Assembly (NCBI RefSeq): GCF_018977255.1
Contig: NW_024704742.1
Coordinates: forward strand, 79,672,001 to 79,736,000
DNA length: 64,000 nucleotides
Reading direction: 5' to 3'
Source of the DNA: Callorhinchus milii
Lineage: Eukaryota
This document shows positions 993-64,000 of this stretch, piece by piece. The first letter of the stretch is position 1. Every line of letters starts with the position of its first letter. Both the position numbers and the translations under genes were made by a program. Under the pieces are notes generated by a model. It worked only from the letters and a program-made list of their open reading frames with translations, did not search any database and was not told where the DNA came from.

Positions 993-1080
993 CACATGGC
1001 CCCTCTCTGTAGTTTACATCATCTATGGCAATGTTTGCTTGACTGGTCATCGAGTTTTCATTGTAGCCCTCCAAAATGAT
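993..1080 (-). CDS. Exon: MAM domain part 4 ([29 protein letters not shown]). Either splices at G|gtgaga or reads on to a stop at 955-957
   Basis: ttcatttttgcag|ATC, phase 0. I.LEG ... IAIDDV....G.C is the canonical MAM C-terminus. Confidence 0.92.
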
Positions 1081-13000: not shown

Positions 13001-16000
13001 TTATTGCTTGGACATGATGGTTCACAAACAATTCCAAAAACTAATATGCGAAAAATGTCAACCAGGCTCCAACAAAGCTGAGAAAATCTTTCTAATGAGA
13101 GGGTGCATCTCATCGATTCAGAACACAGCGGAGAGTGAAGGAGATTGCTGGCTGCACTTTAGCTGATTAAAAGTGCAGCGCTAATGAAGCAGAGCATCCA
13201 AGCATAAAGTAAATATCTCATATAATTCCTCTTCTAATCATTACTAAACAAAAACGAGCAGCATTGCACTATGCCAGCACTAACTCCGGTGTCTGAGAAA
13301 AATATTGTAATTATATTGTTCGCCATTAATGCAATCCTTTCTCCAATTGCCCCAGAATCCTACCTTGAAGTCCCGTGGGGCCATTATTTCTATCTCTGCT
13401 TTATTCCAGCCTTCACCTTTATTTCCATATTCTTGCCAAATTGGTTGTCCGGAAGGATAATCTAAATTGTACATCAAGAAAAGTAATTTTGAATTAAATG
13501 CGTCAGGCTTCCTTTACAAATATTTTATGCAGTTTGCCTCCTCTTCATGAAATGAGATTGTCATTGGTGTTTTAGAGTGCTTGCTGAGGCTTTGAAATAA
13601 TTATTATTTAACTAGCTTTCTCAGGTCCAGATCCGGAAATGAGGATATTAACTACTTAGATGTTTACAGATCAACTTCACTTTGTGCACCCACTAACATA
13701 CCCCGACACCTGGAACAGAATAGGTCCAATGGTTTCAAGCAATTATTTGCCAACTCACATTTGCAAATCTATTTCACGTGAATTGCACTCAGGCTTACAC
13801 TATGAGGCCATCCTGTATTAAAATTAAAATGAACATAGAGGATTGTGGACATTTTTCAAATTCAGTCTTTATTTTGAAAATGGTTCTTTTAAAAAAATGG
13901 TAAAATGTTGTTCAATTAAATCTGAATTTAAATTTTTTTGCCTAATTCTGTGCTATCTTAAATTGCAAGAGTAAATGTTTGAAGAGGCTAATACCAGGGC
14001 TTAGAAGCTGTGGTCATACTTCAGATTTGTTAGTTAGGATATAAATTGAAACAGAATTTTGCTAAACATGGGAGATGTGTCTCTGTGCTGTGGGCAAAGC
14101 GGAAACTGGGCTGGAGAAGCTTTAGTAGGGAGTAGAGCGAGAGGGGTGAGCAAAGAAACTCTGCAAAGGGCATTTACTGTGAAGTGCAATCAACAATTGT
14201 GTATTTGTAGGCCAACACATCATCCAATTTGCACACAGCAATGTCTGACAAACAGTCATGAAGTAAATGACCAATTTATCTGGGGGCCAGGAGTGGGAGT
14301 GTTACCAACTGAACCAGGCTGTCGAAAGGAACAACAACAAAATACAGTACCTATATATAGTACCTTTAACATCAGAAGGACTTCACACAAGGCATTGGAC
14401 AGTTAAGTGTTTGCATCAGAGCAAGGGGTTTGAATCAAGAGGGATGGAGGATAGGGGGTTGGGAGGTTGTTTTGTTTACAAACTGTTCAACAACCAGTAT
14501 GTTAGCCTAGCTCATGGTTAAAGAGGAAGGTCTCGAAGGAGGAAAAGGAGGGGATGAGGCGGAGGCATTTGGGGATGGAGTTTCAGAGGGTGGAACAGAA
14601 AAGCTGAAGGCTTGACCACCAATGGTGGGGCGGGCACTGTCTCACATCGCAGGCCACCGAGACCCTCATATATGCATTTGTAACATCCAGACTTGACTAC
14701 GCAAACTCCCTGCCTGTTGGCCTCCCCAACACCTCCCTTCATAGGCTGCAGATCATCCAGAAGTCTGAAGCTTGTGTCCTCTCCTGCACCAGGCTCCATG
14801 ACTCTATCAACCCCATCTTTGCCCAACTCCACTGGCTTCCCATCACACAGAGGATACAGTTCAAGAATCTGGACCTTACTTCCAAAGTCCTCCATGGCCT
14901 TGTTCCCCCCTACCTCTGCATCCATCTAACCCACTACCAACCTGCCCGCTCCCTCCGCTTAGCAGGCTCTGGCCTGCTTCACACCCCCCACCCATAGGTG
15001 GGTGGGCCTTCGTCTAACCCACTACCAACCTGCCCGCTCCCTCCGCTACGCCCCCTCCCTTGCCTCCTTCAAGACCTGTCTCAAGACCCTCCTTTTTGAC
15101 TGTGCCTTCGGTCACCCACCTTTCCCCCGCCACCACTCTCTCCAAACCTGACCCCCAGCTCGGATCCAAAACACTAATTGTCCAATGCCTTGGAACATCC
15201 TCTTGACGTGAAAGGGATTATACATATGTAATTTTGTTGTTGTTTTTGATGACCGAAAATGATCCCAGCAAACCAGCAATCAAAATTTATGGCTCTCACC
15301 AGGTTTAGTAGGGGAGAGTGAACGGAGGAATTGAAACAAAAAATTTAAGACACATTTTAATAAAGAGTGGAGGGTGACAAATGTGTCATGTGATGCTGTA
15401 ATTAACAGTATAACTTTTACATTATAAAACATAGCGTTGCATCCAGGATATAATAGATTGTGATAATTAGCACATCACACACCCATATTTTGCATCCCTG
15501 AATGCATTTGCCCAGATTAGCAAAAATATTCATCACGGTAAAACAAAAATAAGCAGTTTAATTTTTTTTAATAAAAATTCAAGAGGCTACAAATATTCTC
15601 AGGATCACATTTATAAACATTTTCACCCCAGCAATTACAATCATTAACCTACTCTCTGTGATACCAATATTCATTGAACTCCATTTATTCATGAGAAAAT
15701 CCCACACCATGCACTTAAATATATCCCTTGCAGGGAAGCAAACACAGTATAAATTATCTATGAACTCCTTGAGAGATGAAAGACGATCTCACATTATTTT
15801 GCTTACAGACTGTTCAACAACCAATATGTTAGCCTAGCTCAGTAGTAGTTGGACTCTCGCCTTTAAAGGTTGTGGGTTCAAGTCCCGTGTTGGGACTTCA
15901 AACTCCCAATGTAAGCTACATTTTAATGCAGTGCTGCTGGTTTGCTCCATTGTTAGAATAATAATCCTTGCATTTGATATAGCGCCTTATCACATCTTCA

Positions 16001-19000
16001 AGGCGTCTCAAAGCACTTCACAGAATATACTGTAAAGTGAATTGACTGTATATTTTGTGGGCAAAACACGGCAGTGTCCCACAAACAGTCATGGATGGAG
16101 TGATCAAATTAGTATTATTATTATTTTTGAAAGATTTATTACCCCCGGAAAAGCGATTCGCCAATCGACTAACAACCAGGTTCCTACTTACTGCGAAATA
16201 AATAGACATGTGGAATAAGGAAACTTGCCCAATGTTTTGTCCTGCTGGGAATCAAGTCCAGGTCTATCGCTTGCAAGGCTAGCACTCTAACCACTGAGCT
16301 ACAGAACACTTATCTCATAGGATTGTTGGAGGTCCTACCCTACAGATGAGACTTTAAGGTCCTGTTTGTTTAGGTGGATTTTAGAGATCCCATGGCACTA
16401 TTTGAAAGAAAAGGGAGATTTCCTGCTGTGCACAATTTGGCTGTCGCAATTGCCTACAAAATGCAGTCACTAATTTTGCAGTATATAATGTGTAGCACTT
16501 TGAGACACTCTTGACGTGAAATGTGCTACACCAAGGGAAAAAAAGGATTTTTTTTAAAAAACAGGGATAGATGTAAAAGCTCACAGTAAACATCAAACCC
16601 TGGGATTTCTGAAAGGGCAAACAGCAGGGTAATGCTGGTGATATTTTCCTAGCTCTTCTTACCTTCAGTAGCAGAGATTATATAGACTCGGAGAGGTCCC
16701 ACCATGATGCCTTGAAATAAGCTGTGTATGTGGAAATAAAAGCTGAAGCATGCACGTTGGGTACCAAGGAGCACTGGAGATACCAAATATGCCTTTTGAT
16801 TTTCTTTCAGGCCTGTGGTTTCTATGTACACATATGATCCTGTCAGTGGGAAGAGAGCACAACGCAACTATTCAATAATGCAACACTCGGCTTTCATTAT
16901 TTTCTGGATTAAGTTTGAGCATCTTATGCAGTGCTTAGCACACGTCAAAACATTCCACTATCACCTTGATTTCCAAAACCTGATGATAGCAGTGTTCTCA
17001 TGCACACTGTCAAGAGTGCCTACAGAATACCTTAACATTACCTCATTCAGCTTGTGAATGTATTTCTCGAGTCCCAAATCCTCAGCTCTGTACTAGTAAG
17101 TCATGTTAAAATGAGCTTGCCATCTTGCATTTAATAGCCTGCACACTAAGTTATGTCGATCTCAAGGATTGTAAAAATTGTTTTGATACAGCACAGATTT
17201 CAATGGGTTATGCAATGATTGCAATACTATCATGAACAAATAGTGCAATACTATAGTGTATTACAGTGCCATACTGTTACTATTTTGATGCTGACAGTAC
17301 TCATGAATCTCCTTTTTAGGCTATCAAATAAAAAATTATCTGATTTTATGTCACTTAAAAGCACAAGACTGAGTTTATGGAACTACAGGGCCAAATTTTA
17401 TTATGTAGCATTACATACATAGAGTCTACAGCACTGAAACAAGCTACTTGGCAGAATTGATCAATGGCAATATTTATACTCCACATGAGAATCCATCCAT
17501 CTATTCTAATCCCCCTTCCCTAGCCTCCCCATATAGATCTCTATTCCTTTCATGCATGCATCAAGATTCCTCTTAAATGATTTCTGCTTAAAACATAGCT
17601 TCTGGCAACGAGATCCACATTCTCACTTACTCTGTGTAAAGAATGTCTTCCATAGATCTGTTAGTGGCTATCTTATACTTGTGCCCCTTTATATGTACTC
17701 ACCAACATGTGGAAACAGCCTATTCATGTTTATCTTATCATACCGCTTCATAATGTTAAACATCTCTATCTATTAGGACAGTTTTTCAAAATGTCTAGCA
17801 TTTGACCTCCCACTCATAAGGAAATTGACTTTCTGTGATATTATTGATAGTCTGCATTTTCTAAAGGGGAATTTAAAATAGCAGTGGAAGTCTGTCTTCG
17901 GGGAAGTCAAACTCCTGTTTAGCTAGGCATACAGAAAAGCAAACAAAATTAACATTATAAATGTTTTTATGGTCATTCTGTGAACTATGTTTCACCAATA
18001 AATAACTGGAGTTCCAAAATGCTCTCCTTATACTTTATGCAATGTTACTGCAAAATAAATCTCAGCCAAGTCAGATCCCATCCTCACACAACATCCACCC
18101 ATGTAAAGCTACCAGCAGGATGGTTATTAGGAACTCTGATGATTTTCCACTCCATAATTCAGGGGCACTGAAGCCAATTGTAACATCTCAATATCTGCCT
18201 TGTATAAGATCAGCTCAAGCAAAACGGGATTCAAACCTGCAACTGTCTGCTCTAGTGCATTTTTTATCCACTAGACCATTCCTTCTTATGTTTTATTGCT
18301 GATTTTATCCCCCCCAAGAGCTGATACATTTGCCATCTCAAACAAACTTCCTGAAATCTTTCTGTTTCAATCATTTTTTTAGCACACGTGAAACTAGACC
18401 TCAAAACAAATTTTGAAACACCACAACTGTATGTAAATCCTAGAAAAAACTAACCACAACATTATAATAATATTTTTGCATTTGATATAGTGGCTTATCA
18501 TGCTTTCTAAACATCTCAAAGCACTTCACAGAATACACTGTAGAATGAATTGACTGTACATTTTATTGGTGAAACACGGCAGCCAATCGCACACAGCAGT
18601 GTCCCACAAACGGTCGTTGATTGAGTGACCAATTTATCATTATTATTTTTTGGAAGGAATTATTACTCTCAGAAAAGTGATCCGCCAATCAACTAACAAC
18701 CGAGTTCCTACTTACTGCTGGGTAAACAGGTGTGTGGAGTAAGGAAACTTGCCCAACATTGTGCCCTGCCAGAAATCAAACCCAGGTCTCTCGTTTGCTA
18801 GATGAGTGTTCTAACCACTGAGCTAGAGGACTTCATTATACACCTGATTTCTAAGTCTTTATGATGAATTATCTCATTAACATTATCGAGGATGTTTTGA
18901 AAATCACTATTTATGAGTTGTCCATTTCTAATTTACCAAATTGAGCTTCACAAACTTTAACAAACTGTGAACATTTACTTGACAGCTCTTCTCTCTGAAT

Positions 19001-28000: not shown

Positions 28001-31000
28001 GACCTGGAAGGACAAACTAGTTATTGGGGGCAGAGGGTCCTCCTACTCAGTTCCAGTTAACACTGCAAGCCAAAGGCCTAATAGGTAGGGTGGTCCTAGA
28101 TGGACAAGCAGCAGAAAAGCTTGTCAAACAATGCTTTCAATGACAAGCTGTGCAGTTTTAGCTGGTGAAACTACAGCAATTTTCAACCATGCATTCAGCC
28201 ACCCTCCTACCTCTCTGCCCTCCCTCATCCCAACCCTGCTCCCCAATGCTCGGGTCCTGCTCCCTGACTGTTTAACGCCTTGGGACTTCCTCCCAACATG
28301 AAAGGTGCTTTATAAATTTATTAATAATGTATAATCAACAATTTTGTGGTTGATGTTGTACCAAACTCTATTGCTAGTAAACATGGCTATTGTTCTCCAC
28401 ACTGCCTCTTACCTGGTCTGACCTTCTGGTGGAATGACTCACACTTCCAGCTTCACCCCTCTTGCTGCCATTCACGCACAGCCTCATAGCAGAGAGCAAT
28501 GGGAAGAGAGATGCAGCTGGGAGATCAATCATTGATCAAATGATTGATCAAGGCGTCAATCATAGCCTGAGCCCCACTGGCCTCCAAGGTCCCCTCAGAT
28601 CTCGGGGCCCAAAGCCATGGCTTACTTGGTTTATTGGTTAATCCGGCCATGGGTATCAAGAAGGCATCTGTGTAGAGCTTTATCTCACTCAACCGAGAAA
28701 GTGGTGCAGAGCCCACAACAGACTAACTCTGTGTTGTGTGTGGATGAACAATCTTGATCATACAAATAGCTCTCATTCCATTACTATTAACTTCATAAGC
28801 TGCAGATCATCCAAAACTCTGCAGCTCATGTACTCTAGCCGACCAGGCTCTGTGACCCCATCACTCCCAACCTCGCCCAACTCCATTGGCTCCGCATCGC
28901 TTAGAGGATCGAACTCAAGATTCTCATCCTCACTTTCAAGTCCATCCATGACCTTGCCTCCTTCTATCTCTCTGACCTGCTGACTCCCTACCAACCTGCC
29001 CGCTACCTCCGTTCAGCAGGCTCTGGTCTGCTCCATGTCTCCCACCCGACGCCCTACTATCGGTGGTTGGGCTTTCAGCCTCTCTGCCCCCACACTCTGG
29101 AATTCCATCCCACAGTCCCTTCACCTCGCTTCCTTCCCTTGCCTCCTTCAAGGCCGGTCTCAAGACCCTCCTCTTCGATCTTGCCTTCAGTCACCCTCCC
29201 ACCTCTCTGCCTTCCCTCATCCCTACCCCACCCCTCCCCTATACTTGGGTCCTGACCCTTGACTGTCCAGCGCCTTGGGATGTCCTCCCAACGCGAAAGG
29301 TGCTCTATAAATGCAATTTTGTTGTTGTTGTTGCTGTATTACTGTCTGGTGCAGCACTGGGCCCTTCCAAATCAATAGATTGCAGGTTTGAGCACTAGTG
29401 TGCGTTGGTTTAGCTGATCTCAGTCAGAACAATGCATTATCCATAAGGTAACACTAGCCTGTCGATGGACAGCCACAATCAGATCACAGTCTCACATTTC
29501 ATTCAGCTAATTAAACATTAAATGTTACAGTCAACTAATTAATAATTACAAATTAGACAGCTAATTAACTATTAAAAGTTACAGTTTTCTATTAATGTAT
29601 AAGCTACACACTTAAATGAATAAACGATGGCTTCAAATAGTAAAGGAATCAAAGCTGCTCCTATAAAGTTTGTTTGTACAAAGGATATCTTGTAACTGCT
29701 AGCTTGGGTTATATAAAGTCATGATCAGATTAGACAAACATGCCATTTACCTGAGGTCCCTATGGTGTGGTCACTGCCTGGCCCCATTCCTGTGGTAGTT
29801 CTGTTTCCTGACCATCTGCTCCAGTCAAAGTCATCCCCTTCAATATTAAGTTGATAGCCGCAGCTTGGCTCCAAATCACTATCAAAGTCACAGTCAGCTG
29901 CACTTCTGCCACCCTCTATAAGGAAAGGAAAGCAAAAGACTTTGGATTGGATGCCCCTGTAATGTTTTCAACCATAGTATAAAAATAATAATAAATTGGT
30001 CACTCAATCCACAACTGTTTGTGGACACTACTGTGCGCAATTGGCTGCCACGTTTCGCCCACAAAATAAGGGGTCAATTCACTTTACCGTATATTCTGTG
30101 CAGGGTTTTGGGACAACTCAAAGATGTAATAAGGCTCTTTTTGAAATGCAAGGATTATTAGTATTATAGTCAGGAGAATGACATGATATGGGCTGCAGAT
30201 AGCTCCAGTTAATATGTTCCCAAATCTTCAAAAATATTGTTTGGATGTTTCCCTTTATATTCAATTGTGTTTTTCTAAATTTGCTTATAAATTTGACTCA
30301 GTATGATTGGGACTCAGAATGTATTTTGTTGTAATAAATGCAATGGTTTTGTTGCAATACATTCACACCATATCCTGTATTTCCAATACACTATGTTAAT
30401 TTTCTTTTCTCAGAAAAACAATTTTGTCAATGCATTTCCAACAATACCGAAATACATTCCACTACATAAATGACCTGCTTGAGGCACTCAGCTCTGAATA
30501 GTAATGTACAAAGAGAAATGCATCTTTCAGGACTGGAATGTTGATGCCAAATGACTCCCTGTAAGTCAGTGATTCATGGTAGAAATCATGAGCAGCTAAC
30601 AAATCAAAATTTGTGAAATAAGTGAGTACATATAGCTCTTAACAAAAACGGTAGAAAAGGAAGGTAACAATCTCAGAACCAATTCAATCTTCCTTTCTGT
30701 CAAAATTGGAAATGCAGAATAAAAATGTTCACCGAAAATAACCAACAACAACAAACAACAAATTGCAATTATATAGTGCCTTTCACATGGACATCCCAAG
30801 GTGCTAAACAGTCAAGGGTTTGCACCCGAGCTTGGGGTTGGAATCAAGGGAATGGGAAGATGACCAAAGGGACAGTCAAAGAGGAAGATCTTGAGACAGG
30901 CCATGAAGGAGACAAGGGAGAGGGGTGAGGTGAAGAGATTCTGGGATGGAGTTCTAGAGGGTAACGGTTTAAGAGTGAAGGCCCAATTGCAGTTGCTGGA

Positions 31001-34000
31001 GCAGGCCAATGCATGCCGAGTGGAGGGAGCGGGCGGGTTGGTAAGATTTCAACTCGATCCTCGGGGGATGGGGAGCTCCCGAAGCCTGGTGTGGGAGAGG
31101 ACACAAGCTGCAGAATTCTGAATAATTGTGGAACCAAGAAGGTTCCTCTCCATGATTGCAGGATTCAGACTGATAAAACACTAATCAGCTCTTACTTTGA
31201 ACAGCTCTACATTGTCCTCACAACACCAAATCCACTCAATTACTCGCCGTAGTGATTAACCTCAGTGCAATGCTGTTTTTATGTTGTTTACCTCCTTTAT
31301 CCCAAAACATGACTTGAATGCTCCTGAATCCTGCTTTTATTCGCTGCATACAGTGGCTTGCATTTTGAAGTATCTGTGATGTATTTGTAGCCATATAAGT
31401 CATGTTACCAACCAAATGTTGGATTAAGATTATATTGCTCTGCGGAAGGGAAAAAAATAAAATCTTGAGCACTAAAATTGATATTAAACAGTACTTTTTC
31501 AAATAAACCTGCAGAATAATACATTGTTTCTCAGCATATAGGGATTAAATTGCATTGCTATGAGTGACAATCTTGTTCTGAAATCATTTGGCTGAGGCCA
31601 AGTTGCTCTTTTTATGATACTGTTTTTTCTTCACCTGGAGTCAGTTTGACAAAAACTGGACAGGAGATGAAGAAAAACATTAGAATGATAATAAAAACAG
31701 TTGTCGCCCTCCAGAACTCCTGCTCTATAGGCTGCAGATCATCCAGATCTCTGCAGCCTGTGTCTTCTCCCGCACCAGGCTCCATCACCCTCTCACCTCC
31801 ATCCTCACCCAACTCCACTGGCTTCCCATCACACCGAGCATACAGTTTAAGATCCTGGTGCTCACCTTCAAAGCCCTCCATGGTTTTGCTCCCTACTACC
31901 TCTGCGACCTCCTAACCCCTTCCCATCCTGCTCGCTCCCTCCACTCAGCGAGCTACGGCTGCTTCACATCCCCCGCCTCGCCCGCCCCACCATTGGCGGG
32001 CGGTCCTTCTGACACTTTGCCCGCGCTCTCAGGAATTCCATCCCGCAGTCCCTCCGCTTCGCCCCTCTCTTGTCTCCTTCAAGACCCATCTCAAGACCCT
32101 CCTCTTCGACTGTGCTTTTGATTACTCTGCTTCTCCCCTGTCCTCCACCCTTCACATCCCAACACCAAGCTCGAGTCCGAAACTCTCCAGTACCTTGGGA
32201 CATCCTCCCTACATGAAAGGAGCTTTAGAAATGTAAATTTGTTGTTGATGTTGCTGTATTCTAATATCTTGAAACACCAGTCTTCAATAAACTTCCAGGG
32301 ACTCTCTTGAATGGATTGCCAATAAAAGTCAAGGTGAACACAGTAGCTCTTCAGTGCACTAGCTTTAATAGGCTGACCTGATGTTCAGTCACAGCTGATC
32401 ACAAAACACTCCTGCAAAGCTGATTAAACTTCACTTCTGCTAGGTTTCCCGCTGGGCATGTTTCCAGCAAGTAAGAACCAGTGTCGCAACAGTGATCCTC
32501 ACAACCAGTCTAAGAACACAAGAGAATGACTTTCAGTCCTTACAACAAATCTCTCAAAGGAAATTTTCTAAATAGATTCTCTAATAGTAGAGGGCTCCCC
32601 AGAGAACTTGATCTGCAGGTGGATGTTAATGATCCTGTGGCAACCACTCGAAAAGAGAAGGGAATTTTCTCCCCAGTGGCCCGGCCAACAATCCTTTAGA
32701 TTAATTCTCCACCATTTCCGGCACCTCCCGCGTGATCCAACCACTAAACATATCTTTCCCTCCCCTCCCCTCTCAGCATTCCGAAGGGACCATTCCCTCT
32801 GTGACTCCCTGGTTCATTCCTCCATCACTCACATTAGTTGCTGTCCTCCCCCCAGCACCTTCCTATACCAACGCAGGAGATGCAATACCTGTCCTTTCAC
32901 CTCCTCCCATACCACTGTCCAGGGCCCCAAACACAGTTTTCAAGCGAGACAGTGATTTATGTGCATTACCACCAATGTAATTTGCTGCATTCACTGCTCA
33001 CAATGTGGTCTCCTCTACATTAGGGAGATGAAACATAGATTGGGTGATTCATTTGCCGAACACCTTCATTTTGTCCGCAAGCACAACCCTGAGCTTCCAG
33101 TTTCTTGCCACTTCAATTCTTCCTCCCTCTCGCACTCTGACCTCTCCATCCACGGTCTCCTGCGCTGTTCCAATGAACCTATCCCAGAGAGGATCAATTT
33201 CAAGATCCTCACCCTTGTATTCAAGTCCTCACTATGCCCTGAGGCTCTGGAACTGCCTTCCTCACTCCCTTCATTTTGTTCCCTCCCTTCCCATTTTCAG
33301 GCCTCTGCTGAAGACCTTTCTTTTCGACCGCGCCTTTGGTCATCTTCCCACCCCTCCCCCTGGCTCGGCCACGGGATCCGTTACTGTAAAGCGCTCTGAG
33401 ACGCCGTCCGGCGTGGAGTGCGCTATATAAATCCAAGTTGTTGTTGTCATTGTTATTGAACCACAGTGCAAGCTTGAGGAACAGCCTCTCATTTATCTGC
33501 TAGAAACCTTACAGCCTTACAGCCCTCTGGCCTCAATATTGATTTCAACAATTTCAGTCCATAACACCTCCCTTTCCCCCCACTCTGTGACCGTTACCAC
33601 ATCATCTTGGTCCCAGACACACCCTTTCTCTCTCTTGTCTGCCTATTTGCAATTGTTGCAATTTTTTCCCCCTTTTGTTTTGCAGTATTAACCCCTTTAT
33701 TCCCCTGTTTTGTTGCAATCCCCCCCTTTGTTTTGCATCATTAACACCTCTTTAACCCAACATCCCCTGTCCTCTAACCCATTTTCTCCTTCGTCTTCCT
33801 TGCCCTGCCTCCCTCCACCTCCCTGTTAGCCCTTAAAAGCCTCTCCCTCCCAACATGCCACAGTTCTGATGAAGGGTCGTGGACCTGAAATGTTGACTCA
33901 CTTTCCTTTCTCCATAGATGCTGCCTGACCTGCTGAGTGTTCCCAGCGTCTTCTGCTTTTGTTTCAGATTTCCAGCATCTGCAGTGTTTTGCGTTTTATT

Positions 34001-37000: not shown

Positions 37001-40000
37001 AATGAAACATCAAAGTAATTATCCACCCACCCACACATCCATCCATCCATGAAAGTAGTGGTATGGATATAATCCAATATACAATTAATTCCCCGTTTAT
37101 GTTTAATCTGCACTGAGGAAACTGGATAACAATTGCCATTATTTGACTCTTGTATCAAAGTTACCGAATTGAGATCTGTCTTTGAAAGACTTAATTTTCC
37201 AAACCTTCCAAAGTATAATTCAAAATAAAAATTGAAAGAAAAACAAAAGTTTGTTAGCTGCTGGCCACAATTTGGATGAAAAGCAATTTTTAACCTTAAA
37301 AAGTTCAAATATATTGAATCCATTAAAATTATACTGATCCCTTTAAAATTATACTGAACCTGCGACCTTCTTAAACCCTACCTACCTGCTCCGTCCCTCC
37401 GGACGGCTGACCCTGGCCAGTTTTTTGTTGTTGTTGAACCTGTTAAAATTATCCTGAACACATTAAAATTATACTGCTAACTCTTGTCCACAGGTTGAAT
37501 TGTTTTAGTCATACCAGAAACAGTACTGTTGCAAGGGATGCTGACAGCAGTAGAAACAATGGTATGAGGTCAATATATAAAATATAAGAAATGGAAAGGA
37601 TACAATGAGCACTTAAAACTGGAAGCAGGGGTGGCTGGCTCCCCGAAAGGGCTCAGGATTTTCAGGTGAATTGGAGGCACCAATTTGTGGGGACATCGAT
37701 TTGTGGAGCCACCAATTTGGCGTAAAACCTCTGCACTTGAAAACCTTCGTCAGAGCTTTAACAGGGGGGCTGGATCCAGGCAGCGATTGGTTATCGTAGC
37801 TGTCGCTCATCAGGGAGGGCAGACTTGGAGCGATGTTTGGCTGATATGATCTGTCACTCACCCAAACTGTGTGCTCTGTGTAAAGTATCGGGAGCCAATT
37901 ATGTGGGTACTCGGGAAATTTCCCGATTTCCCATACAGTTAGTCCACCCTGACTGGAAAGTATATAATAATCTTTGCATTTGATATAATGCCTTATCGCA
38001 TCATCAAAATATCTTAATGTGCTTTACAGGATATTCTGTACAGTGTATCTGCAGATATGGCAACCATTTTATGGCAACCATTCCACAAATAGCCACATGA
38101 AGTGAGTGACCAGTTTTATTTGGAGAATTGTTGGCAGGGACACTGAGGAAAAGCTTCATTAGTCTTTCAACAGGAGACAGAACTTTAATGCCTCATCTGA
38201 AGGACAGCACTCACAAAATCACAAGATTAGTTTGGATTGAGCAGGCCCTTCGGCCAATCTGATCTCATCCCTCCAAAATATCCATGCTACCACCCTCTTA
38301 TCACATCATTAAGCTGCTCTGAAATTGTAGCACTCCCCCAACACTGCACTTGAGTGTCAACCTAAGACCTTAAAGTCCTAATGTGGAGCTTGAACCCACA
38401 ATCTTCTGACTCAGAAGCGAGTGTTTACCAACTGAGTAGGTAATATGAAAAACATCATTCTGCATGGGTTCACCATCTTATGATCAACAACCTATTTACA
38501 TAAACTACTAATGACTATGCATGGATCACTTAACAGATTTTGAAAAAGATTTTAGATTGAGATTGAAGTGCAATATTCTCATAACAATATATTTCTTGCA
38601 TGGTGTTGCAAATATTTTGTTGTGATTCTTATTTAAATTATTTTTGACTTTCAATATAATTTCTGAGGAAGTTATTCAAATGTAGTTTCCCTTTATTCCT
38701 GATGTTATGTTAATTTTAAGATTATAAATTAGTTTACATCTGTAACGAATGGTAGGAAAAAAGTAACACGTATCATTAAAGGTGAAGATTTTGCTCAACT
38801 CTAGCAATGTTTCCGAAAGATAGTGTTGAACCAATAAATGATGATTTGGCTTTGACCAAGTTCAGACATTAAAGTGCAATGCGCAGGAAAAAAGCAGATC
38901 TGTTTACCTCAGGCTTTGAAGTGTTATTGGAATTTCTTCTGCATGTATCTTAGGGTATTTTCCCTCCATACAGTGCTGAGAGGAGTTCTGCATTGTCAGA
39001 AGTGCTGTCTTCTGAATGAGACAAGGGGATAAATAAAGGGCCCCATCTGCCCATTCAAGTGAACATCGAAGACTTTGTGGCACTAATTGAAAAAAGCGAA
39101 GGGGATTTCTTCTGTTTTCCTGGGCAACACTCCTCCAGATAAATTGGTCATTCACATTATGCCTGCTGATTGGGTTCATTGCTGTGCGTAAATTGACACT
39201 GCATTTGCCCGCAAATATACAGTCCACTACCCAAGACAAAAATTACTTGTGAAGCACTTTGAGTTCTTTTGATATGATAGGCACAAAATCAAATGCAAGG
39301 ATTGGACAATTTATTTCTTGGTTCCTTTCCCTGAGCTCAAAGCCACGACAACATAATAAGCAAGCTGCACTTTAATTTGTTGTGTTTTTTGTCAATTGAG
39401 AATAAATCTACAGTCCAATCCTACTTTATTACAACAGTGTTAAAGCCACAACACTAGCTGTGATTCTGTACTCTATTGACCTTATATTTCATACTAATTC
39501 ATTCTATATTTTGAAACTGACCTTGATCTGACCCATTTTCTCCACCATAACCACAACATATTTGTCAAGATCTGAAGTGCTTTTCTTGGTTTCTTGTTCT
39601 AGAATTTTTGCATCCTCCACAATAGATTGGGCAGCAATTAAATCCAGGTGAATAGACTGCAACTTGTCGGTCTAATGGATGCAAAATTAAAAATTATAAT
39701 CTTATTATCAACTTCGCATAGATAACACATTTAAAATCAACATTGAAGAATTCAGAACCACATTTGGCTCATACAATTAAAATTTGTTTTGGCATCAACT
39801 TAAAATACTGAGTAATTGTGTGTTGTGTGTGTCTGTGAGGTGTGTGTGTGTGTATATCTTGCATGTTTTCAAATATCAGCAGTCAATTGTTTTTAAATCT
39901 GAAATATTACAATGTAATTGTTGCTTTCACTAAGTGAGTGCATCTACAATTAATTACTTACCTACCCTAACGCTAATTTGCTTATTCTACAATATTATAT

Positions 40001-49000: not shown

Positions 49001-52000
49001 CAACCAACTCTATTTTTCCACCTCTCTTTGTGACCCCCAGTCCCCTGATGTTCTGTCAGCCTGCCTGTCAGATCTTAGGGGCTGGATGTGCGCAAATTTC
49101 CTTCAGCTGAATATTGACAAGACGGAAGCCATACTCTTTGGCTCTCATCAACGTCTAAAATCTCACAGCTCTCACCTCCTCCACCTACCTAACCTCCCCT
49201 TAAAACTCTCCGAACCCATACGCAACCTTGACGTCAGGTTCGACCTCCAATTATCCTTCCTCCCGCACATCCAGTCCCTCACCAGCAACGCTTTCTTTCA
49301 CCTCCGACACATCGTCCGTCTCCGCCAATACCTCACTCCGAAAGGCGCTGAATCCCTGGTCCATGCCTTTGTCACCTCTCGACTGGACTATTCAAATGTC
49401 CTCCTCGCCGGTCTCCCCTCCACTATCATCCACAAAATCCAGATTATTTAAAACTCTGCCGTCCGCATTCTCACCCGTATCAAACTCCGCTCCCCGATTA
49501 CCCCAGTTCTTGCCAGACTGCACTGCACTTCAAGATCCTCACCATTGTCTTCAAATCCCTCTACTCCTCTGCACCCCCCTAACTCTCTGACTTCCTCTCT
49601 CCTCAAAACAGTGCCCATTGCCTTCGTTCCTCCGGGTCTGGCCTCCTCCTTGACTCCGAGTCCTCCGTTCCACCCGCAGCAGCCGTGCCTTCAGCCACTA
49701 TGCCCCGAGGCTCTGGAACTCCCTTTCTCACTCCGTTTGCCTCGCTCCCTCTCTACCTATTTTCAGGTCTCTGCTGAAGGCCTTTCTTTTCGACTGCACC
49801 TTTGGTCACTTCCTCCCCCTCCCCCTCCCCCTGGCTCGGCCCCGGGATCCATTACTGTGAAGCACTCTGAGACGCCGTCCGGCGTGGAGGGCACTATATA
49901 AATCCAAGTTGTTGTTGTTCTATTTGCACTGGTGAGCAGGCATGTGTTGAGGAAACAAAGTTAACAAGGTTAGATCCAGCTTTGAAACTTTAATCATATA
50001 TTTCCATTAATTGTGTGGCCATTATCTAATGCATAGTCTCCAATTCATAAAGTAACATACCTGGTGAGGACTGTAGGTGAAAACAAGTTAGTGGTGAACT
50101 AATAGCTCCTGGTTCAGTTATGAGTAGCATGTGGTTCTAAAATTCTCTGTTTATATAATTGCAGCTAAATGCTTAGCACTTGGATTCAAAATATCTTGCA
50201 TCTGCTTTCACTTTTCAATTTTGTCTTCTTTCTCATACACTGCTTATCAATTTTAATTCTGCTTTTGTCCCTCTCCCTTTGGAACTCCCTGCCTCTATCC
50301 CCCCATCTCTCTCCCCTCTCCCTCTTTCCCTCTCTGTATGTCTGTCTATTTATCTTTAAATGTCATCTTATGGCCTACCTCTTCAAACATGCCTGTAGTC
50401 ATCTCCTCCTTCCCCTTGCTTAGTGCACCAAGGATTAAAATATGCTTTGAAGAATAATTTTAACTGCATACACGCAAATCATAGTTATTTTAGTGATGTC
50501 GCCATGAAACTTCAATTCCCATTCTACTACCTGTTCTCAATTATCATGTCATCTCTGTGAACTATAAAATATTTAAATCCGCACTTGCAATCTAGCACCA
50601 TATCAATTTAGTTTAAAAACGTTAACTCAATGAACTTACTGCTGATTTTGTATCATACATAGTTCTCTGAATATCGAGAAACTGCCCACCAATGGCTTGA
50701 AGGGGGAAAGCTCCTTTCAGCCTCTGTTGAATGGGTACTGCTCATGTGTTGTTCCAACATATGTAAGATGTATGATGCCTTAACCCCATTCAGTAAAATC
50801 ACATTTGAAAGTACCTGCTTCCAAGTCTCTGAAAACAGAGCTTCCACTTTCTGCTTTGTTAAGGAAAGTGTCAAATCCAATCCATCAGTAGACATAAGCT
50901 CAGGCGTATTGTCTATGCTCATTACGTTTGAAAGAGCGCTCTCCTTTATAGCCATAGAGAGAACTTCATGGCAACTAAAACAGAGAATAAGTGTACTTAA
51001 ATAATGGTCATGTAACATAAATTAATATAAAGGGCAAACAATAAAGAAAATAAACTTCACACTTGAATAGCAGGTTTTTACAACCTATATGTTTCCTTCA
51101 GTGCCTTCAAATAGCATTAATACACTTGGGGTCACCAGCATTGTGGAGAATAGTTTTATTCTATATTGTTACCAGGAGAGGATGTGCACTGTCACAACAT
51201 TTTAACTGTGATATAAAAACCAATACCATATCCAACAGCCCTCTGAAAAATACTATTCATCTTCCAGTGGTTTAGTTTCCTTCAATAATACTGTCTTTCA
51301 TTGATTATGAATGTCAAAGTTGTCAAGTTTCTCTCTGCGGTGCAAGAAATCTGCATACCTGGATAATTGTTCATTTACAATGTTAGTTGAAACCTCCAGA
51401 CTCTGGTTTGCTGCAGACACCAGTTTTACAGCATCTCTGGCCACAGTGACATTATGCTGCAGCCCCTGTTCAAGTGTATGAACGGTCTGGAGTAGCATTC
51501 GGCTCCCATACTGCAGATCACGTACCTGTAAGATATACAAGATGGAGAGCTGATTGATATACCTCAGTGACTCAAAGCAACAGATGCCAATTTGTACAAT
51601 TACAGAATTACATCTGCAGATGGCAAGACAAAGTTGCAAATGCCTTTTGTTTCTGTATTTTATTAAACCAGTTATATTTTAGGTGTCAGTCTGGCTCAGT
51701 TGGTAGCACTTTCACCTCTGAGTCAGATGGTTATGGGTTCAAGACCCACGATGGGACTTTGAACTCTGTGCTGACACTCCAATGAAGTGGTGAAACTGTG
51801 TTGCATTGTTGGAGATGACATCCTTTGAATGAAACATTAGACCAGGACACTTATGTACTTTCCTGTGGATGTTAAAGATGCCATGGCATTGTTCAAAAAA
51901 AAAGGGAGTTTCTGCTAGTGTCATAGCCAAGAATTTCCAAAATTGGCCATTCACTTCATGGAGGGTTTTGTCAGCACTTTTTATATATGCAGTCAAACAT

Positions 52001-61000: not shown

Positions 61001-62687
61001 TCTCTCACCCAATCCCTCTGTCTTTCCCCCTACTTCCCCTCTTTTAGATCATGATTGAAGATCTTCTTCAATTGTGTTTACGGCCACCTCCTCCCTACTG
61101 CCAGCTCGGCATCAGTCTCCGCTGCTGTTAAGCGCTTCGAGACACTGCCCAACATGAAGGGTACTATATAAATGCAAGTTGTTGTTGGTATATCGTGCGC
61201 AGAGGGCACAAAACTGGAGTTTTAAATGTTGTATTTGTTGTGTTATGCAAAAATAAATGCCCACATTAAGAGTGAATGGACAAATGCTACCAATTTCATG
61301 TAGCTTGAAAGGGTGGCAATTCAAGTGCGGATGCAAATACGTTTAAATTTAAATAAAAATGCAATGGTCGAATACACTATCTCAATAACGGCTCCTTCTC
61401 TAAGACAGTACTTTACAAATATCATGACAAGAAAATGCATATTTGTACAGTATTGAAGGAATACCAGCTTGAGTTTAAAACAGGCTGAGAAAAATAACAA
61501 GCATTTCAACTTTAATTTTTTTGGTCAGCTAGTTGTCTGACACATGCAAAAACCCATCACTGTGTTAAAGAGTATCCAAACCAGACTGAGTGTTCCACAT
61601 ATATATGCCACTTACACATGGAAACTTTCCTGTGTCTACAGTGGAATGCACAATCTCTCCCAGGAGGGATGCACCCTGCTTACATAATTTCAGGGAATGT
61701 TTTGCACAGGTTGCAAGGGCCAGCCAAGGCTTCGAAAGCCCAGAGTGTGTGCTAGGGTAGTGCTGGAGTTTAAACAGTTAAAACTACACAGCTTGCCACT
61801 GAAAGCACTGCCTGACAAGTCCAGCTAGGACTATCCTACCAATTAAGACATTGGCTTGCAGGATTAACAGGAACTGAATCAGAAGAATCTCTGTCCCCAG
61901 TGATTCGTCTGTTCCTGCAAGTCTTGCAACGAGCCAGGCTGGCTCAGGAACTTAACTATCGAGACCATCACAGAGGATTGACTCGATTTCGACAGTCCTT
62001 TACCCCATTTACCTCCGCACTGAGGAGGATTGTCACTAATTGGTCATTTGATCATCTTTAAAATGAATCTATAGTAATAGCACGATGACAGCTGATTGTG
62101 CCCTAATATACCCACATACTTGCTTTCAAATAATAATAATCCTTGAGTTTAATATAGTGCCTTATCACATCATTAAGGCATCTCAAAACATTTCACAGAA
62201 TATACTGTAAAGTGGATTGACTTTTTGTGGGCAAAATCTCAGCTATGCCACCTCAAGGACTTTGACAGCATTGGTCTTCTTTGTAGTAAATTTCAAAGTG
62301 GACTTAGTGAGGTAGTCAATCTGCCTCCTGAACCTGGGACAGGAAAACGTGAGCAAGGGGAAAGAAAGAACATAAGATTCAAAAGACAGACGTTCACTCT
62401 GAACAGAAGTAAATCATTTACCTCAGCTAATAATCTGGGAAGGGTGTCTGTATGTGCTTCAGTTGCCACTTTCAGTAAAGTGGAGGTATTGGCTGCAAAT
62501 GTCTTCCAGTAACCTTTAAGTTTATTTGCCTCATTCAGAGATGCCCGGCTTTCAGTTATGATCTCTGTTAACTTTCTGTCTTCAGATTGTAACTGTGTGA
62601 GCTGATTAGCTTTCAGGTGTAGAGCCTCCAATTCCTTGAAGTAATTGTGGATCAGATCTATTAAACTCTTTGTGCAAGAGTCACATT
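993..62687 (-). CDS. Multi-exon gene, incomplete in window: laminin-alpha-like coiled-coil protein with a C-terminal MAM domain. Exons: 62687-62422, 51525-51359, 50974-50815, 50723-50640, 39671-39522, 31439-31292, 29915-29751, 16839-16663, 13461-13364, 1080-993
   Basis: All exons have AG/GT boundaries with matching phases (1|0|2|0|0|0|1|1|1|0|1) and join into one stop-free frame. The product has heptad-rich helical sequence, several N-glycosylation sequons (NTS, NVT, NQS, NMT, NAS, NRT) and canonical MAM motifs. Confidence 0.82.
1190..1480 (-). mobile_element. Deu-core tRNA-derived SINE
   Basis: Reverse strand shows a tRNA-like head (ctcagttg...gttgtgggttcaagcc), the core gatcctatgg and tgctgtgtgcaaattggctgcc; matches many other copies in the window. 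Confidence 0.7.
1905..2315 (+). mobile_element. Deu-core tRNA-derived SINE
   Basis: Head ggctcagtt...gggttcaaacc, core ggtggacgttaaagatcccatgg, and L2-like tail tgtgaagcgatttgagac. Confidence 0.75.
2751..3665 (-). mobile_element. CR1 LINE 3' fragment (RT C-terminus and 3' UTR)
   Basis: Translates to [30 protein letters not shown]...AVNEANQM, with a (TTCTTATG)-like tail at 2751-2772. Confidence 0.85.
5405..5835 (+). mobile_element. L2 LINE 3' fragment
   Basis: [16 protein letters not shown] motif, then the gcgccttgggatgtcctcctgacatgaaagg tail and (TTG)n. Confidence 0.8.
10583..11359. mobile_element. Solo LTR, probably Gypsy-type, inserted in a Deu SINE
   Basis: Termini cGTTAGAA ... TTCTAACA form inverted repeats (the 5' TG is mutated). 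4-bp TSD GTTA at 10579-10582 and 11360-11363. The host SINE resumes exactly afterwards. Confidence 0.7.
10886..11037. repeat. Tandem repeat, about 4 copies of a 32-39 bp unit, inside the LTR
   Basis: The core ccatctcccgtatccttgtctcc recurs four times. Confidence 0.9.
13364..13461 (-). CDS. Exon: MAM domain part 3 ([33 protein letters not shown])
   Basis: atttag|AT ... AAG|gtagga, 98 nt, phase 1 to 0. Carries the W...GN.G..W..A.I MAM motif. Confidence 0.92.
14330..15250. mobile_element. Back-to-back L2 3' fragments (minus about 14330-14640, plus about 14640-15250) with an internal 35-bp duplication
   Basis: L2 tails at both ends. tctaacccactaccaacctgcccgctccctccgct occurs at about 14925 and 15013. 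Confidence 0.75.
15957..16308 (-). mobile_element. tRNA-Ala-derived SINE inserted in a Deu SINE (about 15830-16550, plus strand)
   Basis: Head tgtagctcagtggttagagtgctagccttgcaag and (ATT)n tail. The host SINE continues on both sides. Confidence 0.8.
16663..16839 (-). CDS. Exon: MAM domain part 2 ([38 protein letters not shown]...[12 protein letters not shown])
   Basis: cactgacag|GA ... AAG|gtaaga, 177 nt, phase 1 to 1. Carries G.Y.YIE, A.L.SP, C.SF.FH and L.VY MAM motifs. Confidence 0.93.
18465..18832 (-). mobile_element. tRNA-Ala-derived SINE
   Basis: Collinear with the copies at 15957 and 40464. Confidence 0.8.
20368..20510. mobile_element. Possible Tc1/mariner (Tigger-like) DNA transposon end
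   Basis: TA|CAGTGGAAGCCGCTTTAGCTGGAC start with internal ccggataa/ttaatccggac repeats. No partner end was found. Confidence 0.3.
21447..25168 (+). mobile_element. Near-full-length L2 LINE (APE endonuclease + RT), frameshifted
   Basis: APE motifs LQNIRSL, LTETWL, GGGVA, ILGDFN; RT motifs [33 protein letters not shown]. (TTG)n tail and TSD TAAACCA at 21440-21446 and 25169-25175. Confidence 0.95.
21930..22250 (-). mobile_element. tRNA-Ala-derived SINE inserted in the L2 ORF
   Basis: Splits [12 protein letters not shown], flanked by a CACATT duplication; has a tRNA-like head and (ATT)n tail. Confidence 0.92.
25377..26058 (-). mobile_element. Penelope-like element 3' fragment (GIY-YIG C-terminus)
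   Basis: [27 protein letters not shown]; 13-bp TSD ACTTTACAGTATA at 25364-25376 and 26059-26071. Homologous to 32704-34003. Confidence 0.85.
28790..29335 (+). mobile_element. L2 LINE 3' fragment
   Basis: [24 protein letters not shown] motif with the L2 tail and (TTG)n. Confidence 0.85.
29751..29915 (-). CDS. Exon: MAM domain part 1 ([49 protein letters not shown])
   Basis: tttccttatag|AG ... CAG|gtaaat, 165 nt, phase 1 to 1. Carries the MAM signatures CDF..CG, DDFDW and GP..DHT.G. Confidence 0.93.
30745..31120 (-). mobile_element. L2 LINE 3' fragment
   Basis: (CAA)n tail on the plus strand and [13 protein letters not shown]. Confidence 0.75.
31292..31439 (-). CDS. Exon: end of laminin domain II-like coil ([49 protein letters not shown])
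   Basis: ttttttcccttccgcag|AGC ... GAG|gtaaac, 148 nt, phase 0 to 1. The ending resembles the 'ASKIQVSM.F.G'-type motif that precedes LG1 in laminin alpha chains. Confidence 0.85.
31705..32255 (+). mobile_element. L2 LINE 3' fragment
   Basis: [18 protein letters not shown]...ARSLHS followed by the L2 tail. Confidence 0.85.
32704..34003 (+). mobile_element. Penelope-like element (GIY-YIG endonuclease region), inserted in a Deu SINE and interrupted by an L2 3' fragment (33180-33456)
   Basis: [56 protein letters not shown] at 32693-32703 and 34004-34014. The inner L2 is flanked by TGAACC. Confidence 0.9.
34540..34850 (-). mobile_element. tRNA-Ala-derived SINE
   Basis: Collinear with 40464-40788. 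Confidence 0.88.
35860..35901 (-). CDS. Possible small in-frame exon ([14 protein letters not shown])
   Basis: caacag|TTC ... AAG|gtatgg, 42 nt, phase 0 to 0, coil-like. The polypyrimidine tract is poor. Confidence 0.25.
37626..37951. mobile_element. hAT-type non-autonomous element (MITE)
   Basis: Termini CAGGGGTGG / CCACCCTG and an 8-bp TSD ACTGGAAG / ACTGGAAA (7 of 8 match). Confidence 0.7.
39522..39671 (-). CDS. Exon: coiled coil ([50 protein letters not shown])
   Basis: ttttgcatccattag|ACC ... AAG|gtcagt, 150 nt, phase 0 to 0, heptad pattern. Not present in the ORF track. Confidence 0.8.
40020..41920 (-). mobile_element. 5'-truncated L2 LINE (RT region) interrupted by two tRNA-Ala SINEs
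   Basis: [38 protein letters not shown]. SINEs at 40464-40788 and about 41625-41840. Confidence 0.9.
40464..40788 (+). mobile_element. Young full-length tRNA-Ala(TGC)-derived SINE
   Basis: A box TAGCTCAGTGG, anticodon arm ctcgc-tttgcaa-gcgag, B box GTTCAATTCC, partial Deu core, L2-like tail and (ATT)n. Confidence 0.92.
42937..44130 (-). mobile_element. 5'-truncated L2 LINE inside a Deu SINE (about 42810-44405, minus strand)
   Basis: [36 protein letters not shown]; the host SINE halves flank it. Confidence 0.88.
46411..46580 (+). promoter_or_regulatory. Putative Pol II promoter at the L2 5' end (GC box, TATA box, Inr, CRE-like palindrome)
   Basis: GGGGCGGAG 46437-46445, TATAAA 46464-46469, TCAGTC Inr with its A at 46494 (30 nt from the TATA start), and GTGACGT-N7-ACGTCAC at about 46556-46576. 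Confidence 0.6.
46411..49919 (+). mobile_element. Apparently full-length L2 LINE, degenerate
   Basis: [49 protein letters not shown]; several stops and frameshifts; (TTG)n tail; CpG-rich 5' end. Confidence 0.93.
50640..50723 (-). CDS. Exon or frameshifted exon tail ([28 protein letters not shown])
   Basis: Ends at a consensus donor GCA|gtaagt in phase 0. Needs either a 91-nt intron (50724-50814) or a 1-nt frameshift upstream. Confidence 0.55.
50815..50974 (-). CDS. Exon: coiled coil ([19 protein letters not shown]...[11 protein letters not shown]); 3' boundary uncertain
   Basis: Strong acceptor ttctctgttttag|T in matching phase 2. The candidate donor CAG|gtactt is weak and the frame stays open beyond it. 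Confidence 0.7.
51359..51525 (-). CDS. Exon: coiled coil ([55 protein letters not shown])
   Basis: ttacag|GTA ... CAG|gtatgc, 167 nt, phase 0 to 2. The heptad register continues across the junction with the previous exon. Confidence 0.85.
51683..51965 (+). mobile_element. Deu-core tRNA-derived SINE
   Basis: Head tggctcagttggtagcact...gggttcaagacc and core gtggatgttaaagatgccatggca. Confidence 0.75.
56988..57004 (-). promoter_or_regulatory. CTCF-like binding motif
   Basis: The minus strand reads ACCACTAGGCGGCGCTC, close to the CCASYAGRKGGCRS consensus. CpGs are retained in an AT-rich unique stretch. Confidence 0.5.
57140..57330 (-). mobile_element. CR1 LINE fragment
   Basis: [23 protein letters not shown], homologous to the copy at 60190. 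Confidence 0.65.
60190..60790 (+). mobile_element. CR1 LINE 3' fragment
   Basis: [24 protein letters not shown] ... [29 protein letters not shown]. Confidence 0.85.
62422..62687 (-). CDS. Exon: end of LE repeat and start of laminin-alpha-like domain I coiled coil ([23 protein letters not shown]...PRLLAE)
   Basis: Acceptor ctcttcag|AA, donor GAG|gtaaat, 266 nt, phase 1 to 0. CDxC followed by an amphipathic helix resembles the LE/domain I junction of laminin alpha chains. Confidence 0.85.
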
Positions 62688-63220: not shown

Positions 63221-64000
63221 AATACAACTTTTATAATAATGTACCTAATAATGTAACAATTTTGACAATTATAATAAGAAATTCCCACAAGATGTATATA
63301 TTGTCAAAGCCTAAACCACGGAGCCCAAAACAATAATAATCTGACACTTGGTAGGTATAGTACCTTTACGTCGGCTGACAAATTTTATTTGAGTTAATTG
63401 TTGTCCAGAACATTGGGAGAAACTCCCTTCTCTTTTCGAACAGTGCTATGGGATCTTTAACATCCACCTGAATAGGCAGAAAAAACCTCTGTTTAATATT
63501 TTATCTGAAGAATGGCATTTCTAACAATGGAGCACATCCCATCACTGTATTGGAGTGTCATCTAAGACCATGTCAGTTCAAGTCCTGACATGGGGCTTGA
63601 ACTCACTACTTTCCGACTCAGCGGAAAGAGTGCTATCAACTGAGTCAGGCTGACACAGATGCACCATTCACCTATGCTTCTGTTGAGCATTTTCAATGTT
63701 TGGATTTAACAGTGAGTAAACTTGTGAATAAACTTGACAGCAGCGACTTGTAAAAGGACTTGAAAGGATGGAATCCAACTTGTACTTGAATGTGTCTTAC
63801 GCTAATTAGCTGACATTTTGTACGGACTCCAATCTCCTGCTGGAGAAACTCTTTCAATTTCAATTCAGGAAAAACAGAATTGAGATCGGCAACCACGACA
63901 TGAGTCTGAAGCACATCCCAGCATACACAGATTCTATATTTAGAAATCCTTTTCTGTGCTGCAGTATCTTGCAGCAATGCTGCCATTTATTTACCACTTC

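Follow-up and report, generated by a model that had tools for sequence, protein, structure and literature searches.

A putative laminin-family gene of Callorhinchus milii with a MAM domain predicted inside its long-arm coil

Five alpha, four beta and three gamma chains, each of a fixed build, are held to make up the complete laminin family of vertebrates, and to our knowledge the coil of their long arm is seen as a plain rod that is interrupted only by the small knob of the beta chains. A stretch of 64,000 nucleotides from the elephant shark Callorhinchus milii (contig NW_024704742.1, positions 79,672,001 to 79,736,000; the window, with positions counted from its first letter) raises the question of what kind of chain is encoded by a locus that seems to combine a laminin-like coil with a MAM domain, and where in this chain the MAM domain lies. 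The original prediction, made from the letters of the window, was a derived laminin alpha paralogue whose receptor-binding LG end had been replaced by a MAM cap. Our preferred reading, to which we give a probability of roughly 60%, is that of one gene of ~160 kb on the minus strand (C1:79.642-79.80 Mb) that would encode a non-canonical laminin-family chain with the MAM domain within its coil. As far as the sequence can tell, both the exons and the domains hold up, the locus belongs to the laminin family, and it looks like an extra matrix gene of this family beyond the five canonical alpha loci.

Splice-site and frame analysis of the whole window confirmed ten minus-strand exons with AG acceptors, GT donors and compatible phases that splice into one open frame of 495 residues, just as originally proposed. 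Coil exon 1 (62422..62687) opens on a split Glu codon that is followed by CDSC and 84 further heptad residues, and ends in phase 0. Coil exon 2 (62252..62320; 23 codons, phase 0-0) is the least certain of the series, with a poor acceptor and stronger AGs 7 and 13 bases upstream that break the frame, and its omission leaves the reading frame intact. Coil exon 3 (51359..51525) opens in phase 0, and the split codon whose first 2 bases close it is completed by the first base of coil exon 4 (50815..50974), which itself ends in phase 0 and is followed by coil exon 5 (39522..39671; 50 codons, phase 0-0). Coil exon 6 (31292..31439) carries 3 N-x-S/T sequons, runs into ...[16 protein letters not shown] and ends with 1 base (phase 1). 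From there the frame passes into MAM exon 1 (29751..29915; phase 1 at both ends), MAM exon 2 (16663..16839), MAM exon 3 (13364..13461) and MAM exon 4 (993..1080), the last of which closes 1 base before its donor. MAM exon 3 is absent from the stop-to-stop frames of at least 50 aa and was recovered by a phase-constrained splice scan.

The first half of the coil, encoded by exons 1-6, measures 319 residues from CDSC to ...FWDKG, close to the predicted figure of about 325. Its contrast of hydrophobic residues at heptad positions a/d lies 4.8 SD above 200 shuffles, with control values of 8.9 SD for a beta4 coil, 15.3 SD for a gamma1 coil, 0.0 SD for the LE region and -0.7 SD for the MAM part. The laminin-type EGF repeats (LE) that should precede such a coil end 8 kb 5' of exon 1, beyond the window, in an exon that closes with ...GGC TGC AAA G|GTAGGT and joins exon 1 in phase. 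Since exon 1 begins with AA, the Glu of ECDSC is the split codon GAA, and the peptide across this junction reads ...G-C-K-E-C-D-S-C.

The claim of a complete MAM domain with four cysteines stood up to an exon-by-exon scan in which the four MAM exons cover, in order and in frame with the coil, positions 1-157 of PF00629 with 4/4 cysteines kept. All scores are those of single exons. MAM exon 1 matches positions 1-43 with cysteines 1 and 2 (20.4 bits, E 5e-4), MAM exon 2 matches positions 42-99 with cysteine 3 (32.0 bits, E 1.3e-7) and is the sole exon above the 26.4-bit cut-off by itself, MAM exon 3 is weak but lies at its expected place in the profile (positions 102-130; 13.2 bits, E 0.079), and MAM exon 4 matches positions 128-157 with cysteine 4 (13.9 bits, E 0.048). 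Together they form a domain of 176 residues with phase 1 at both borders, and a crude scan gave splice scores of 4.9-6.3 for their acceptors and 6.5-8.0 for their donors. Among solved structures, MAM exon 2 is closest to 8YT7, the MAM domain of a scavenger receptor SR-C-like protein (E 2.7e-6); the next nearest solved chains, RPTP mu (2C9A) and the MAM domain of neuropilin-1 (5L73), come with non-significant E values. A search with MAM exon 2 against proteins of 103-2000 aa gave no near-identical annotated protein (0/6 candidates scored), and the best match of this exon within the genome is the MAM exon of a receptor phosphatase gene on C2 at 33% identity (E 0.17, non-significant).

Does this domain belong to another gene? 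We considered a separate MAM-type receptor phosphatase gene and rejected it, given that all four loci with MAM plus phosphatase lie on C2, C3, C10 and C18; no phosphatase exons were found near the locus studied here. MAM exon 2 is the only MAM match at this locus in a whole-genome profile scan, and 5' of MAM exon 1 a crude scan saw no first exon that resembles a signal peptide. Together with the phosphatase loci elsewhere and the matching border phases, this makes it unlikely that the MAM domain is another gene's. Elsewhere on the same chromosome, 6.7 Mb off, C1:86,405,748-86,437,162 (minus strand) holds at least 6 MAM-matching exons, presumably of a multi-MAM gene and unrelated by distance. 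Two plus-strand frames of 538 and 492 aa (window 22239-25017), within the intron that separates MAM exon 1 from MAM exon 2, look like ORF2 of a non-LTR retrotransposon, and their contig depth, thousands-fold in 4/4 runs examined, marks this stretch as a high-copy repeat. On two other contigs, canonical alpha loci lie 0.2-0.35 Mb from MAM-type receptor tyrosine phosphatase genes (C2:115.82-116.27 and C3:30.51-31.17 Mb); these alpha loci have LE, Laminin_I/II and LG matches and the phosphatase genes a MAM exon followed by phosphatase exons, and we take the two pairs to match the human LAMA1-PTPRM and LAMA2-PTPRK neighbourhoods.

Where the chain ends is the point at which our analysis departs from the original prediction. 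The donor that closes MAM exon 4, G|GTGAGA, is good, which means that the gene continues past position 993, and four phase-compatible exons beyond the start of the window carry the frame on over 227 heptad residues (z 7.8) that end in ...K-C-E-stop. Exon 11 (L019:3006-3150, minus strand) lies 7.8 kb beyond the window start, has a pyrimidine-rich acceptor and starts with the 2 bases that are needed, though its donor is weak (AAG|GTCTTT); exon 12 (L019:1598-1842, minus strand) and exon 13 (L020:2832-2948, minus strand) are phase-matched coil exons, and exon 14 (L021:336-511, minus strand) is the last coil exon with its terminal Cys-Glu-stop. The resulting chain of 14 exons comprises 2171 nt without an internal stop, all of its junction phases match, and it is spread over 92 kb; an AATAAA follows 374 nt past the stop codon. 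The complete coil of 319+227 = 546 residues compares with 580 and 575 residues in the beta4 and gamma1 references, contains 10 N-x-S/T sequons (four of them in the downstream part) and is entered by the MAM domain about 58% along its length. With a phase-1 donor on its last exon and four further coil exons up to Cys-Glu-stop, the MAM domain is thus predicted to be a four-exon phase-1/phase-1 cassette inside the coil and not a C-terminal cap, and the idea that it replaces the C-terminal end of the chain has to be given up.

The predicted absence of LG domains, by contrast with the cap, is supported. Between the MAM exons and 79,635,000, only two frames have Pfam matches, a coil exon and a reverse-transcriptase fragment, and none is an LG exon (scan of 150 minus-strand frames out of 160 with at least 50 aa). 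Further down, over ~50 kb from 8 kb below the stop (about 79,584,500-79,634,300), no LG exon and no Pfam match at E<=0.001 was found in any of 150 minus-strand frames (out of 193 of at least 52 aa). A genome scan with Laminin_G_2 (127 matches; 150/176 candidates scored) likewise gave no match within about 0.78 Mb, the nearest lying at C1:78.83-78.86 Mb.

On the other side of the window, the suggested look past position 64000 revealed LE and L4 exons and probable pieces of LN immediately 5' of exon 1 and on its strand, with the last LE exon in phase with it, and the assignment to a laminin-type gene is thereby upheld. The EGF_laminin profile has 148 matches genome-wide, of which 8, all above the cut-off, lie 8-44 kb 5' of exon 1 on its strand (C1:79,742,899-79,779,009, minus). 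When minus-strand open frames of at least 50 aa in the 100 kb flanks on each side were scanned against Pfam, LE matches appeared in 3/141 and 9/146 upstream frames, the short arm has about 16 LE repeats overall, and one of the 146 frames proved to be a Laminin_B (L4) exon (30.1 bits, E 5e-7). A Laminin_N match is found in a single frame among the 141 (positions 47-77, E 5e-4, below cut-off), and pieces of the LN domain follow each other in order at about 79,801,2xx, 79,799,5xx (...TWWQS), 79,787,8xx and 79,786,7xx; local matches to the LN profile span positions 2-73, 71-108 and 245-303, and the first LN exon has no match in the PDB at E<=1. The last exons of a choline-transporter-like (SLC44A-type) gene on the minus strand form the 5' neighbour (L017:7970-8323 and L018:1976-2152, i.e., C1:79,823,970-79,828,152; Choline_transpo Pfam E 2.5e-14 and 1.6e-5) and provide a usable synteny anchor. 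With the last exon of this neighbour at 79,823,970-79,824,323, the laminin-type gene should start between about 79.801 and 79.824 Mb.

One frame of the short arm stands apart from simple LE repeats. This frame of 237 aa (L013:2473-3183, minus strand; C1:79,778,473-79,779,183) encodes two LE repeats and a truncated LE, followed by an insert that is not LE. Its best database matches are laminin beta4/beta1 with 37-42% identity across the LE part, without a near-identical annotated protein among those of up to 2000 aa, and its best solved matches are the LN-LE structure of beta1 (4AQS, E 3e-21) and LE5-LF-LE6 of beta2 (5LF2, E 3.5e-16), with the truncated LE plus insert aligning to LE5-LF of 5LF2 over query residues 110-168. 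The non-LE insert has no match in Pfam, LAMININ_IV_B included, and may be an old, poorly profiled LF-type domain. We note that ~90 residues of the insert align with the insert of a laminin-like chain of Corticium candelabrum.

Is the chain an alpha paralogue, as originally proposed? The CDxC motif was taken as a mark of alpha chains, but the C..C..C knot at the border from LE to coil has the same spacing in beta, gamma and alpha-like reference chains and therefore does not discriminate the chain type. The Laminin_I/Laminin_II signature appears at five loci of the genome (C3:30.54, C3:35.08, C18:14.95, C2:115.84 and C2:117.97 Mb), which presumably are LAMA1-5, and not at this gene. Profile searches were expected to return both Laminin_I/II-like and MAM hits, of which only the latter appeared in our per-exon Pfam scan; the coil exons gave no significant Laminin_I/II match in what is a weak exon-by-exon test, and a single exon showed sub-threshold matches amid many generic coiled-coil families. 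Neither did the Pfam families LAMININ_IV_B, LAMB1 and LAMB4 match in any frame scanned. Profiles built on beta and gamma coils scored the two halves of the coil at -8.1 to 5.2 bits and the joined coil at -14.2 and -2.5 bits, with shuffle maxima of 3.1-6.8 bits; they score each other's coils at -1.3 and 5.4 bits and, as they miss even these, cannot separate laminin coils from noise. The tail looks beta-like: its Cys lies one residue from the end of the chain, where 7/7 beta references end in C-x-x and gamma references have ~9 residues after the Cys. Further beta-like features are the LE/insert exon, which is closest to beta chains, and the interruption of the coil. The proposed alpha paralogue is half supported: the short arm has an LF-like insert plus an L4, and two alpha loci out of the five give the only in-genome matches of the L4 exon (E 0.004 and 0.25), but the absence of LG domains and the beta-like tail speak against it. 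Judged by these features, the chain type is mixed, with an apparently alpha3/5-like short arm and a beta-like tail.

Among the 12 sequencing runs listed for window 29751-31439, no run on record as RNA contains this stretch; 5/12 contain this stretch or part of it, of which 4 contain most of it and one presumed-RNA run, X1, contains 0.10 of its words. Across window 13300-33299, none of the 15 joints listed for four runs (X1, X2, X6 and X7) corresponds to a predicted splice junction (0/15; repeats dominate, with 4833 further joints). The one clean piece from the presumed-RNA runs is an X1 contig of 191 nt at depth 3.35 (29782-29972), which reaches without a splice from 57 nt inside the preceding intron into MAM exon 1 and covers most of this exon; it may be pre-mRNA, DNA carry-over or the sign of an unused acceptor, and counts neither way on expression. 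For coil exon 1, no relative emerged from proteins of 154-2000 aa (0/108 candidates scored), no paralogue from the genome itself, and no true relative from 1.84 billion representative proteins, where four matches of 38-45 bits are judged to be spurious leucine-periodic ones because two are LRR proteins and two have sub-threshold or borderline families only. We estimate a product of about 2200 aa, for which a gene model could already exist and yet have escaped a protein search that ended at 2000 aa. In the full-text literature, we found no laminin chain with a MAM domain, Callorhinchus included; texts that mention laminin and MAM together bring in MAM only for a comparison of folds or inside the DOI of a reference, and among the matches listed on the laminin gene family of the elephant shark none concerns an extra chain. 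The original impression of an unfamiliar architecture therefore agrees with the lack of a description in print and of a true relative of coil exon 1.

These observations leave room for other readings of the locus, among which we regard as unlikely, yet as the one to be taken most seriously, that the laminin-type gene is real and that its MAM cassette is not constitutive but skipped, confined to a minor isoform or a decaying relic. Exon 6 with its 1 terminal base and exon 11 with its 2 initial bases join in frame without the cassette, the coil of 546 aa without MAM already has the normal length of a laminin coil, and the X1 contig shows no splice at the acceptor of MAM exon 1, which it crosses. 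Against this, the four MAM exons are open, keep four cysteines and good splice sites and cover the whole Pfam profile in order; in a relic decaying across 29 kb, one would not expect such integrity to survive. The least probable alternative in our eyes is the earlier model in which the protein or its main isoform ends after the MAM domain, the chain is an alpha paralogue and the downstream coil is separate. Retention of the intron after 993 would bring a stop after 12 codons, with an ATTAAA 5 nt into the intron, and this model can also invoke the alpha3/5-like short arm, which has an insert and an L4, the latter with its nearest in-genome matches at alpha loci. It has to set aside, however, a consensus-like phase-1 donor (G|GTGAGA) and the phase-matched, pyrimidine-rich acceptor of an exon 7.8 kb on, and it leaves unexplained why four downstream exons should give a canonical coil length and a beta-like near-terminal Cys. 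Nothing like a start or signal exon turned up that could open an independent coil gene downstream, and exons that encode only a coil with N-glycan sequons make little sense by themselves.

Only slightly more probable, and still quite improbable overall, is that the whole locus is unexpressed or a dying lineage-specific laminin duplicate whose odd architecture has no function. The lack, among the 12 runs listed, of one on record as RNA that contains the stretch would fit such a fate, as would coil exon 1 without a relative in the libraries searched and the absence of a near-identical annotated protein of up to 2000 aa for the MAM exon or the LE/insert exon. A dying gene is difficult to reconcile, though, with 14 exons over 92 kb that have open frames, matching phases and canonical splice sites, with LE cysteine patterns good enough for 8 above-cut-off Pfam matches and with an intact heptad pattern, and an existing model of ~2200 aa may simply lie outside the range of proteins searched (<=2000 aa).

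Under our preferred reading of a single laminin-family gene with an internal MAM cassette, the short arm of the chain would run, from N to C, through LN, LE, a truncated LE with an LF-like insert behind it, further LE, L4 (Laminin_B) and LE again, and the long arm through the C..C..C knot, a coil of 319 residues, a MAM domain of 176 residues, a coil of 227 residues and Cys-Glu-stop, without LG. Were the MAM cassette taken away, one phase-1 intron of the coil would remain in its place, a layout expected from exon shuffling; the shuffling of extracellular domains is classically recognised by modules inserted into phase-1 introns. The chain would be secreted and, with its 10 N-x-S/T sequons, probably glycosylated; its heptad region of 546 residues could pair with partner chains in the way of laminin subunits, and the cysteines of the knot and the near-terminal cysteine could form interchain disulfides. 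We imagine that the beta-sandwich of the MAM domain loops sideways from the rod, like the L-beta knob in beta chains or L4/LF from LE rods, and would thus offer a lateral site of adhesion or oligomerisation. Because LG domains are absent, the chain probably cannot act as the receptor-binding alpha subunit of a classical laminin. The literature describes the L4 and LF inserts of laminins as beta-sandwiches with a fold similar to MAM domains (PMC5338690) and a ConA-like jelly roll shared by MAM and LG domains (PMC6526912), and on this basis a sandwich domain that loops out from a laminin rod seems to have a precedent in the short arm.

A bolder and more tentative proposal, which we hold to be somewhat less probable than an even chance, is that cartilaginous fishes (at least chimaeras) keep a thirteenth type of vertebrate laminin chain that is absent from mammals. 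Its short arm would be of the alpha3/5 kind and its tail beta-like, LG domains would be absent, and an exon-shuffled MAM domain in the coil of the long arm would, in a laminin-like trimer, project sideways as a lateral cross-link or receptor site. A nearby receptor phosphatase gene of the MAM type may have been the source of the MAM domain; in this genome, two canonical alpha loci still lie 0.2-0.35 Mb from such genes. If true, this would mean that the laminin coil tolerates large inserts and that the laminin family explored builds that were lost in mammals, and basement membranes could contain a lateral, MAM-mediated cross-link or receptor site unlike that of any known laminin. The locus would then also illustrate cleanly how a phase-1/phase-1 cassette can be shuffled into a gene for a coiled coil, and its product, as predicted from sequence, is a candidate new basement-membrane component for the tissues of sharks and chimaeras.

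Among known systems, the laminin beta chains (beta1/beta2/beta4), in which the L-beta knob breaks the coil, are among the closest. They share with the predicted chain a probable LN domain, LE repeats, an insert after a truncated LE, the C..C..C knot, a coil of ~550-580 residues with a non-helical interruption, the lack of LG domains and a Cys within the last three residues. The interruption is here a MAM domain of 176 residues instead of the cysteine loop of roughly 30 residues that forms the L-beta knob, and L4 (Laminin_B) is present here but absent from beta chains. The L-beta knob lies about 38% along the beta coil, compared to 58% for the MAM domain. The short arms of laminin alpha3B and alpha5 combine, as this one does, a large insert after a truncated LE with a later L4, whereas our chain differs from alpha3B and alpha5 by the lack of LG1-5 and of the Laminin_I/II signature and by its short, Cys-containing tail; according to PMC5338690, inserts of this kind are found in beta chains and in alpha3 and alpha5, and an insert followed by a later L4 is the alpha3/alpha5 pattern.

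Another counterpart is the Corticium candelabrum protein XP_062516372.1, named 'laminin subunit alpha-3-like, partial' at its source, which is collinear with five successive upstream exons, the truncated LE and ~90 residues of the insert included, at 35% identity over 177 residues (E 9e-26). This model of 836 residues is partial and does not cover coil and C-terminus, and its available part contains no MAM domain. RPTP mu, neuropilin, meprin, enteropeptidase and SR-C-like proteins, finally, have the same complete MAM profile with four cysteines, but there the domain stands beside Ig, FN3, CUB, LDLa or protease modules on a membrane protein, whereas here it is predicted to sit inside a laminin coil.
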